Origin: Klebsiella phage BDK21
Direction: 5' to 3' (one strand)
DNA length: 50,141 bases
Sequence record: MW524749.1
Both the position numbers and the translations under genes were made by a program. Position 1 is the stretch's first letter. Every line of letters begins with the position of its first letter. A model generated the notes under the pieces. That model was not told the DNA's origin. It did no database searches and worked only from the letters and a program-made list of their open reading frames with translations. Shown in pieces: positions 8,822 through 9,316 of this stretch.

Positions 8822-9316
8822 TTAAATATTGACCAGAATTTAGGTAAGATTGAGAAAATCAGTCTTACCTTTTTTTATGCCTGAAATTCAGCGACTTGCA
8901 ACTGGTCGAACCACTTTAGGTAAGATTTAGTAAGATGAATCTTACGTAAATTTCGCGCAAAATTTAACCAATTAACCGCAATATATAGATAGTAAGTATA
9001 TGATAAATAACAATATTATTATTATTACTCTATCTGTATCTATCAATCTTGGTAAGATTTCTCCGGGGTACGTGTCTTTTTTCGCTGGATTTCGCGCCAG
9101 ATTTTTCATGGATATTTACCTATAGGGATCTTACTATCTTACCGATTTGCGTTAACTTTATGAAATGTATGGAAAAAACCACGTAAGATGCATCTTACTA
9201 AATCTTACGTAAATTTCGCTCATTTTTTGACCAACCAAGGATAGCACTTTTTGACTTGCGCCGGGAATCGTCATGCGTATACTTAACGCAACGAAACCAC
9301 AAATGGAGCAATATCA
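8822..9316. repeat. iteron-rich AT-rich intergenic region (candidate origin/regulatory region)
   Basis: about 11 copies of GGTAAGAT / ATCTTACC in both orientations; 13-bp direct repeat TTTAGGTAAGATT twice; 19-bp direct repeat ATCTTACGTAAATTTCGC at 8938 and 9201 containing the palindrome TTACGTAA; AT-rich tract 8990-9050. Confidence 0.5.

Follow-up and report, generated by a model that had tools for sequence, protein, structure and literature searches.

The window analysed here is a stretch of 50,141 nucleotides that represents nearly the whole genome of Klebsiella phage BDK21 (MW524749.1), a Webervirus, which is a T1-like Klebsiella siphophage of the family Drexlerviridae. Positions 8822-9316 form a non-coding gap of 495 bp between the primase gene and recE, referred to here as region A, which an original prediction had put forward as a replication origin. 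The primase gene (7862-8821, plus strand; gene names are partly taken from related records) encodes a DnaG-type protein of 319 amino acids that features a zinc ribbon (Pfam Zn_Ribbon_Prim, E = 4.6e-10) and ends one base before the start of the gap. The recE gene (9317-10363, plus strand) encodes a recE-type exonuclease (exonuclease VIII; Pfam DUF3799/PDDEXK). The neighbourhood from 7000 to 11000 is 98-99.9% identical to many Klebsiella phage records, and at least 80% of the gap region is present in 342 of the 356 matching phage records. Region A is a composite of the primase terminator, three clusters of a short repeated site, a module of ~125 bp, and a promoter element of a T1-family type. 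The sites, their conservation, the paralogy and recurrence of the module, its duplex stability, the folds of the phage proteins, and the terminator and promoter elements were all computed. The region appears to be the best candidate, as yet unproven, for the unmapped replication origin of the T1-like phage family.

The core of the repeat is the 7-mer GTAAGAT, or ATCTTAC in the other orientation. An exact-match search finds ten copies within 8822-9316, with GTAAGAT on the plus strand at 8844, 8920, 8930, 9052, and 9183 and ATCTTAC, which marks the minus-strand sites, at 8939, 9128, 9136, 9192, and 9202. A further copy with one mismatch is located at 8862, and the ten exact copies and one near copy explain the original count of about 11. 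This count holds for the 7-mer, but the gap contains only four exact copies of the octamer GGTAAGAT/ATCTTACC (8843, 8919, 9051, and 9136). The whole window contains 15 exact copies of the 7-mer versus 4.0 ± 2.0 expected, a number that 0 of 100 shuffles reached, and 10 of these 15 fall in the 1% of the window that is the gap. If one mismatch is allowed, the 11 gap copies correspond to 22 per kb versus 2.5 per kb elsewhere. Clusters of at least three sites, with one mismatch allowed, are found in the window only at 8920-8945, 9183-9208, and 43103-43140, and shuffled sequences give 0.1 such clusters. Region A thus has the clustered short repeat in non-coding DNA that iteron-type origins feature. 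The longer repeats reported for the gap are also present. The 13-mer direct repeat TTTAGGTAAGATT is found twice, at 8839-8851 and 8915-8927, and the 19-mer direct repeat AATCTTACGTAAATTTCGC, at 8938-8956 and 9201-9219, contains the palindrome TTACGTAA; the positions and the palindrome are real, but the string originally quoted for this repeat has 18 nt. The claim of several repeat families is confirmed with small corrections to the octamer count and to the size of the AT-rich tract.

The gap begins with a rho-independent terminator of the regulator-primase operon, which a terminator scan places at 8842-8877 on the plus strand and which consists of a hairpin at 8842-8870 followed by T7. The terminator begins 21 nt past the primase stop codon, has a stem of 12 bp, and folds as RNA with -16.5 kcal/mol (z = -5.1), so that a stable hairpin and a U-run are found at the end of a transcription unit. 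The stem is an inverted pair of the site-like octamers AGGTAAGATTGA and TCAGTCTTACCT, and its columns are invariant in 35 distinct Webervirus versions of the gap, which range down to 81% identity. The suggestion that inverted octamer pairs act as iterons therefore does not extend to the first such pair, which is this stem. Cluster L (8915-8956) features GTAAGAT at 8920(+), 8930(+), and 8939(-), a palindrome GTAAGATGAATCTTAC, and the extension GTAAATTTCGC. Cluster R (9181-9220) features GTAAGAT at 9183(+) and ATCTTAC at 9192(-) and 9202(-), a palindrome GTAAGATGCATCTTAC, and the same extension GTAAATTTCGC. Clusters L and R are the left and right arms of a 33-nt inverted repeat (93.9% over 33 nt versus 8915-8947), and they include 16-bp palindromes of a 7-2-7 type at 8930-8945 and 9183-9198 (GTAAGAT-GA/GC-ATCTTAC) whose half-site centres are 9 bp apart. 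Cluster M (9114-9143) consists of two direct ATCTTAC copies at 9128 and 9136, 8 bp apart, which are preceded by the conserved block ATTTACCTATAG.

The right end of the gap is a T1-family direct-repeat promoter element, ATAGCACTTTTTGACT, at 9241-9283 on the plus strand. The element features TTGACT at 9251-9256 and, 21 nt later, TATACT at 9278-9283, and it starts 76 nt before the recE ATG (9317). A direct-repeat element with the consensus aaATAGCACnnnTTGnTAAAA has been described ~76 nt upstream of start codons in TLS, T1, and Rtp (PMC11447400), and the element at 9241 agrees with it in consensus, direction, and distance to the start codon. By its sequence it is presumed to be the promoter of the recE-erf-ssb operon. 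The last 75 bp of the gap are a promoter element of a genome-wide family, and the proposal of an origin does not extend to them. The shorter string ATAGCACnnnTTG has 17 copies in the window versus 2.7 expected, all co-oriented with the genes, at places that include 4844, 7360, 7783, 9241, 37401-42262, 43687, 45607, and 46596. The seven exact copies that were examined show TTGnnn followed by a TATTAT-like hexamer, mostly after 21-22 nt versus the 16-18 nt of sigma-70 promoters, and this long spacing suggests an activator-dependent promoter class. The GTAAGAT site nearest to the recE promoter element ends 33 bp upstream of ATAGCAC. Other functions for the gap were also considered. An Rfam search of 8000-10000 for structured RNA gave only a chance-level match to U12 (E = 0.45, 19.6 bits versus a gathering score of 53). 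A 41-amino-acid open reading frame at 9000-9125, which some GenBank records list as a hypothetical protein, was rejected since its variable columns are spread over the codon positions as 23/20/21 and it is broken in 7 of the 35 variants; the other small reading frames of the gap are lost more often, leaving no conserved reading frame. Clustering of GATC was not found, and the region contains one GATC.

The AT-rich tract of region A extends over 105 bp, from 8958 to 9062, with at most 20% G+C, and is thus real but larger than the 60 bp at 8990-9050 first described. Only two tracts of at most 20% G+C over at least 60 bp occur in the window, and these are located in two related elements, module A and module B. 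Module A (8938-9065, plus strand, ~125 bp) consists of ATCTTAC, a G+C-containing block GCGCAAAA..AACCAAT, the AT-rich core, and TTGGTAAGATTTCTCCGGGG. Its flanking sites are inverted and 113 bp apart, and its core carries the conserved sequence-specific blocks GTAAGTATATGATAAA and TATTATTATTAT. Module B (43291-43417, minus strand) is located in a 700-bp divergent early control region and consists of ATCTTACC (43298), an AT-rich core, and GGTAAGAT (43409). The two modules, with B read from 43417 to 43291, are inverted paralogues with 72.6% identity (E = 8e-14 and 1e-15 in two comparisons), and neither self-comparison nor a low-G+C scan reveals a further copy in the window. Nearest-neighbour energies determined that module B is the least stable 80-bp duplex of the window, with -74.6 kcal/mol, and that the core of module A is the second least stable, with -80.9 kcal/mol versus a window mean of -115 ± 6 (5.6 standard deviations); the third lowest locus has -93.5 kcal/mol. 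The tract at 8958-9062 is the kind of adjacent, easily melted AT-rich segment that iteron-type origins feature, and its sequence makes it a candidate DNA-unwinding element. No other locus that combines repeats with AT-rich DNA was found in the window by the low-G+C and site-cluster scans.

Comparison of the 35 gap variants reveals that the repeated sites are more constant than the rest of the intergenic DNA. Invariant columns make up 64 of 70 in the motifs versus 230 of 425 in the other intergenic columns (Fisher p = 3e-10), and 65% of the flanking coding columns are invariant. All ten exact sites keep their positions in both Webervirus clades, and by this comparison the sites are under strong purifying selection. 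The original prediction would have been weakened by repeats that were absent or not conserved in related phages; instead, they are in place across Webervirus and the design recurs in other Drexlerviridae genera. The A and B modules were compared in an alignment of 13 A and 13 B copies, paired, from Webervirus genomes, for which pairing via the 187-amino-acid early protein gave four loci and the neighbouring 87-amino-acid protein was used as a second query. All 13 pairs have a common skeleton with inverted flanking sites 110-113 bp apart, and the blocks common to A and B are GCGCAAAAAnTGACCAAT, ATA(A/G)GTATATGATAAA, TATTATTATTAT, and TTGGTAAGATTTCTCCGGGG. In several Webervirus genomes, moreover, the cores of the two modules hardly differ. 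The shared blocks and the near-identity of some cores indicate that the core is constrained or homogenised as a specific sequence and is not merely AT-rich. A promoter scan and a reading of the A/B alignment found no conserved -35/-10 pair in the core in either direction. The sole sigma-70 candidate there, a minus-strand TTGATA-17-AATAAT, is absent from the paralogue and from other variants, and a promoter was rejected as the main function of the core.

The same pair of AT-rich modules, flanked by other motifs, is found in T1, TLS, and a K50-type Klebsiella phage. In T1 (L042) the AT-rich segments are located at 183-322, in the early divergent region at the left end, and at 29991-30099, upstream of recE, and the motif is TGTAACA. 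These two intergenic regions account for all six TGTAACA copies of the T1 genome, and a distance of 109 bp separates the inner flanking sites, which face each other in inverted orientation. TLS (L058) has AT-rich segments at 186-293 and 28787-28919 with the motif GTGAACA, and the K50-type phage has them at 21490-21595 and 42654-42736 with the motif CTCCGCAG..GCGCAACG. The recE-side module was additionally seen in Rtp (motifs ATGTAAC and GTGTATA), in Erwinia phage Snitter (CTATAAC), and in the metagenomic lineages L039 and L040 (AATCCTCCGCAA) and L061 (CTCCGCAG..AACGTTT). Paralogy of A and B is confirmed in four genera, those of T1, TLS, the K50-type phage, and Webervirus, and both module contexts are the same in these phages, yet their primases are only ~50-55% identical. 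By these comparisons each lineage has its own flanking motif within a constant geometry. Modules A and B of T1, TLS, and the K50-type phage are direct copies of each other, and those of the window are inverted copies.

The operon downstream of module A is recE-erf-ssb, and recE is the first gene of the recombination operon downstream of the region in every genus examined; module B is followed by the terminase-side early operon. The recE block is far from the primase gene in T1, TLS, Rtp, the K50-type phage, and Snitter, where the region is again upstream of recE, which argues that the region belongs with recE and not with the primase. This result bears on the original argument that a position directly after primase and helicase genes is typical of phage origins. 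The primase gene is indeed directly upstream in the window, but the helicase further upstream is an SF2 (superfamily 2) type on the opposite strand (5260-7362; annotation from related records), and the likely replicative helicase gene is 38 kb from the gap. The argument also fails to generalise, since the region is far from the primase gene in the five other phages. Relative to T1, the block of module A, recE, erf, and ssb (window 8822-14591 versus T1 29851-34881) is inverted in Webervirus and lies on the other side of the tail-fibre gene. The same rearrangement of the recE block is seen relative to TLS, Rtp, and the K50-type phage, and the module is upstream of recE in all of them.

The third site cluster of the window, cluster P (43103-43140), is located near module B and consists of four site-like 7-mers with one mismatch each, in the orientations +, +, -, - and with a spacing of 11/9/11. 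A sigma-70-like early promoter that reads leftward, TTGACA-16-TAATAT (43161 to 43134), shares its -10 hexamer and start region with this dyad. At the matching distance from module B, perfect sites are found in other Weberviruses, and T1 has an inverted site pair (469 and 494) just before its first early gene. A weak site cluster over an early promoter indicates that the protein that binds the sites also looks like a regulator of transcription, which leaves some probability to a purely regulatory reading. Together with the T1 pair, cluster P extends the paralogy of A and B to the whole layout, which runs from site, core, and site through further sites and a palindromic cluster to a promoter and an operon.

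Two phage proteins are candidates for binding the sites. The most likely binder of GTAAGAT, on the basis of fold prediction, is a Cro-like helix-turn-helix protein of 133 amino acids, annotated as a transcriptional regulator in related records and encoded by the first gene of the regulator-primase operon (7385-7786, plus strand). Its Pfam matches to P22_Cro and YdaS are below threshold, and a PDB profile search leads to Cro proteins with E = 0.007. The AlphaFold2 (AF2) model has a predicted local distance difference test score (pLDDT) of 88 and a Cro-like central domain that Foldseek matches to the Cro proteins of Xfaso-1 and N15 (target TM-scores 0.66-0.74). Between genera of the family, the sequence of the protein is 55-71% identical. 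Its recognition helix, VSxQxVxxW, varies among genera and is identical in the two Webervirus clades that share GTAAGAT. Helix type and motif are also shared by the K50-type phage and L061; Snitter is discordant, and the L060 sequence ends before the module.

The alternative candidate is the winged-helix domain at the C-terminus of a DUF3987 helicase, a 522-amino-acid, MCM-like (minichromosome maintenance-like) protein of superfamily 6 (SF6) encoded at 47618-49186 on the plus strand (Pfam PF13148, E = 3e-38). Modelling suggests that this protein is the probable replicative helicase. Its AF2 model has a pLDDT of 90, and the top 50 Foldseek matches in the PDB are all MCM subunits or complexes with them, with MCM2-7 and archaeal MCM matched at E values down to 8.5e-6. 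Sequence searches of the PDB with this helicase gave no match, and only the fold comparison is informative. The MCM-like fold agrees with the published classification of DUF3987 proteins as SF6 replicative helicases (Kazlauskas et al. 2016, PMC4889955). The C-terminal winged-helix domain, residues ~445-522, is less conserved than the ATPase core. In phage P4, the alpha protein binds the origin via a C-terminal winged helix (Kazlauskas et al. 2016, PMC4889955).

Recent papers report that no replication origin has been found in T1-like phages (PMC11447400, PMC7718038). The reading of region A as an iteron-type replication origin, one of two paralogous modules (A, 8938-9065, and B, 43291-43417), is given about an even chance from the sequence evidence. 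It is favoured by the classical anatomy found at the two least stable loci of the window, by the strict conservation of the sites, and by a geometry that stays constant across genera as the motif changes. It is also favoured by the presence of a suitable gene set (primase, MCM-like helicase, SF2 helicase, and SSB) together with dependence on a host polymerase, and by the lack of any other candidate locus in the window. A DNA polymerase gene is not apparent in T1 or TLS (PMC11447400) and is missing from the genes annotated in a close relative of the window. The origin first proposed thus stands as an arrangement of repeated, conserved sites around the least stable DNA, and the binding, melting, helicase loading, and start of replication are inferred from this arrangement.

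In the proposed mechanism, a phage-encoded sequence-specific protein, either the Cro-like protein or the DUF3987 winged helix, would bind the GTAAGAT sites. Two inverted sites 110-113 bp apart would bracket the least stable DNA of the genome, and clusters L, M, and R would add bound protein. The bound protein and the negative supercoiling behind the outward-reading recE promoter would then jointly open the AT-rich core. The DUF3987 helicase would be loaded, the DnaG-type primase would prime, and host DNA polymerase III would extend, as these phages have no polymerase gene. RecE, Erf, and SSB would subsequently turn early replication into the formation of concatemers for headful packaging. Early transcription would be shut off when this protein occupies cluster P, the weaker cluster that lies over the early promoter beside module B, and the binding protein probably also acts as a repressor in this way. 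A more specific model, which is speculative and rather unlikely to hold in full, is that Drexlerviridae including T1 replicate from two paralogous polar modules, in which the inverted ~110-bp sites position the MCM-like helicase head-to-head on the AT-rich core and the Cro-like partner doubles as the early shut-off switch. If this were true, it would place the logic of archaeal and eukaryotic origins in a bacterial virus, and the genera would have come to differ in site and protein specificity around a fixed geometry.

Several results weigh against an origin. The literature that was searched yielded no marker-frequency, two-dimensional-gel, or plasmid evidence of initiation at the region, and no Drexlerviridae transcriptome or replication mapping was found in a search that did not include the T1 (2004) and Rtp (2006) genome papers, which might mention AT-rich regions. 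The GC skew that had been recommended as a check has its global cumulative minimum at module B (43-44 kb) and a local minimum at ~7 kb, not 9 kb, with no turn at 8.9-9.1 kb. It follows gene orientation, and was set aside as origin evidence because it is uninformative at the scale of the window. DnaA boxes are not enriched, with one one-mismatch match to TTWTNCACA per control region and 66 in the window, and integration host factor (IHF)-like matches are found in module A only and not in module B. The host-factor sites of many enterobacterial origins therefore do not stand out, but they are not obligatory for phage origins. The conservation of the AT-rich core as a specific sequence exceeds what an unwinding element needs. 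The polarity of the modules relative to the downstream operon is fixed in four genera and the site clusters are adjacent to or over promoters, both of which fit transcriptional control equally well. The fit between the recognition helix of the Cro-like protein and the motif is imperfect, since Snitter combines the motif CTATAAC with a helix, VSIQVVSEW, that closely resembles the VSIQVVQQW of Webervirus. Finally, a plasmid collection contains no module on a true plasmid, and the sole match is a Webervirus-like genome.

The most serious rival explanation, which is possible but doubtful as a full account, is that the elements are purely transcriptional controls, with GTAAGAT as the operator of the Cro-like regulator that represses or times recE-erf-ssb at module A and the early leftward operon at module B. 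Dimers would occupy the 7-2-7 palindromes and the neighbouring sites, possibly looped across a flexible AT-rich core, and replication would start elsewhere or by a recombination- or transcription-dependent route. A half-site spacing of 9 bp is expected for a dimeric Cro-type protein, and the candidate binder is Cro-like; palindromic sites and a phage-encoded dimeric helix-turn-helix protein are thus found together by sequence and fold, and binding is predicted from them. Cro-type operators overlap the promoter that they control, as cluster P does with the -10 and start region of the early promoter but the sites of region A do not; this reading gains further from the stronger sites present there in other Weberviruses and from the T1 pair just upstream of the first early gene. 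It would also account for the constant polarity of the modules, for the movement of module A with recE in the Webervirus rearrangement, and for the conservation of the core as a specific sequence. However, the sites of region A overlap no promoter element, with 33 bp between the nearest site and ATAGCAC, and the core lacks a conserved promoter in either direction. Ten perfect sites and a 105-bp tract of at most 20% G+C are much for one operon, the regulator's own promoter (7307-7334) has no GTAAGAT sites, and the phage would be left without a recognisable origin.

The modules could instead serve packaging or recombination, as pac or pac-like sites of the terminase or as RecE/Erf hot spots or boundaries between mosaic cassettes, which is improbable. 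Module B is located in an untranslated region that matches the left end and pac region of T1, whose record opens there with a 2.8-kb terminal repeat, and it is to this untranslated stretch that the SU57 paper assigns pac (PMC7718038). The T1 record starts, at its presumed pac end, with a repeat of another kind (TGATTG/CAATCA) whose counterpart in the window is at ~43530-43680, outside module B, so module B was rejected as the pac site. Additionally, a second pac at a distance of 34 kb would give rise to another packaging series, and T1 is not known to have one; the small terminase gene is far from both modules. A recombination role draws on the similarity between the window and MKP-1, which begins exactly at the module B edge (43291), on the near-identical A and B cores of some genomes, which suggest gene conversion, and on the recombination genes that adjoin region A. 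It leaves ten strictly conserved, protein-type sites with fixed spacing unexplained. Region A is unlikely to serve as a pac or recombination site, and module B probably just lies beside pac. The modules also resemble a selfish or decaying miniature inverted-repeat element inserted twice and without phage function, as the genome has two copies of a unit of ~120 bp whose ends are inverted repeats of 7-8 bp and whose interior is AT-rich. This is very improbable, because the same two genomic contexts are kept in T1, TLS, the K50-type phage, and Webervirus despite ~50-55% primase identity, the terminal motif differs between lineages with the geometry kept, the sites are under strong purifying selection, and the window has no additional copies.

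If region A is an origin, a close parallel in overall plan is satellite phage P4, in which ori and the cis replication region (crr), bound by the alpha primase-helicase, are two distant clusters of a short repeat in both orientations. The P4 record (NC_001609; L062) annotates 16 type-1 repeats of the 8-mer TGTTCACC and its variants, and the P4 segments compared are 4291-4590 and 9310-9413. The window likewise has two distant clusters of the same repeat, region A on one side and module B with cluster P on the other. The 120-bp units of P4 crr directly follow the primase-gene terminator, as region A follows that of the phage primase, and the zinc ribbons of the two primases are from the same Pfam family. 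The TLS motif TGTTCAC (GTGAACA) equals the first seven bases of TGTTCACC, and T1 TGTTACA and Webervirus TCTTACC are one or two changes off; this resemblance may be coincidence. The P4 alpha protein features the domains Zn_Ribbon_Prim, Toprim, D5_N, DUF5906, and Pox_D5, whereas the Webervirus primase is a separate protein of 319 amino acids in which Pfam finds only the zinc ribbon, so that no fused alpha-type protein is present. An hhalign comparison of the DUF3987 helicase with the D5-type helicase portion of P4 alpha gave a probability of 0.3%, so that no homology was detected, and unlike P4 alpha, the phage has no Pox_D5-type origin-binding domain that could be found. The modules also differ from P4 crr in having a 105-bp AT-rich core.

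The Bacillus phage SPP1, a pac-type siphophage, has two distant paralogous origins, oriL and oriR, which consist of initiator boxes and an AT-rich segment and are bound by G38P. The likeness is in the two distant paralogous regions of one genome with repeats and AT-rich DNA. SPP1 oriL is inside the initiator gene, and the SPP1 initiator and its DnaB-type helicase system are unrelated to the Webervirus proteins. SPP1 is not known to have a promoter-overlapping site cluster. The lambda ori with O and the iteron origins of the plasmids pSC101, R6K, and P1 are similar in that several copies of one site are found beside an AT-rich unwinding element, and the inverted copies of plasmid iterons that act as operators at a promoter compare with cluster P. 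Unlike these origins, the Webervirus sites are 7-8 bp versus 17-22 bp, palindromes and inverted pairs flank the AT tract in place of a one-sided tandem array, and the region is outside any initiator gene and has no DnaA boxes.

In archaeal origins, inverted origin recognition box (ORB) elements flank the unwinding element, and Orc1/Cdc6 and MCM are the proteins involved. The phage modules resemble them in geometry only, with inverted sites ~110 bp apart around an AT-rich tract and an MCM-like helicase that ends in a winged helix. No homologue of Orc1/Cdc6 was seen, and the candidate binder is a Cro-like helix-turn-helix protein. The Cro/CI operator arrays of lambda (OR/OL), P22, and N15 have in common with the modules the short palindromes for a dimeric protein of the Cro fold and a cluster over an early promoter. 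They differ in that most of the phage sites are 30-350 bp from promoter hexamers and surround a long AT-rich tract. Unlike the arrays of temperate phages, these sites are in a virulent phage and the regulator's own promoter is without them; the annotation of a close relative lists neither a repressor nor an integrase gene.

T1 is one of the seven classical T phages, and its relatives include Klebsiella Weberviruses that are widely used in phage therapy work. The analysis takes an observation in a single genome to a family-wide model with two paralogous modules, a lineage-specific motif, two candidate binders, and a link to early shut-off. The modules would account for the recE-side intergenic region staying intact through genome rearrangements. 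They would also be sites to avoid in phage engineering and candidate cis elements for phagemids or replicons.

The genes that follow recE on the plus strand are named from related records and encode Erf (10423-11079), SSB (11110-11577), and a tail fibre (from 11670). The Webervirus-like genome in the plasmid collection is CP124687.1, a Paraclostridium bifermentans 'plasmid' of 49,647 bp in which the Webervirus regulator gene is 96.5% identical and the intergenic region is 93.5% identical; its length is that of a Webervirus genome, and it probably represents a phage contaminant that was deposited under the wrong label. Around module B, CCACAAAG motifs are repeated at 43069-43091 and 43301-43470, which hold 7 of the 16 CCACAAA copies of the window. 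A 23-nt inverted repeat with 87% complementarity pairs the ribosome-binding region of the first leftward gene (43069-43091) with 43448-43470. The module B edge at 43291 corresponds to ~44215 in MKP-1, where the similarity of the early control regions starts; the genes to the left of this edge in the window and in MKP-1 are unrelated cassettes, and the module is a mosaic boundary. The segment at 43531-43680 features direct repeats of the type AATCACAAGCAATC and a 29-nt tandem pair, which resemble the TGATTG/CAATCA-rich left end of T1, and it is possibly the pac region of the phage, separate from module B.

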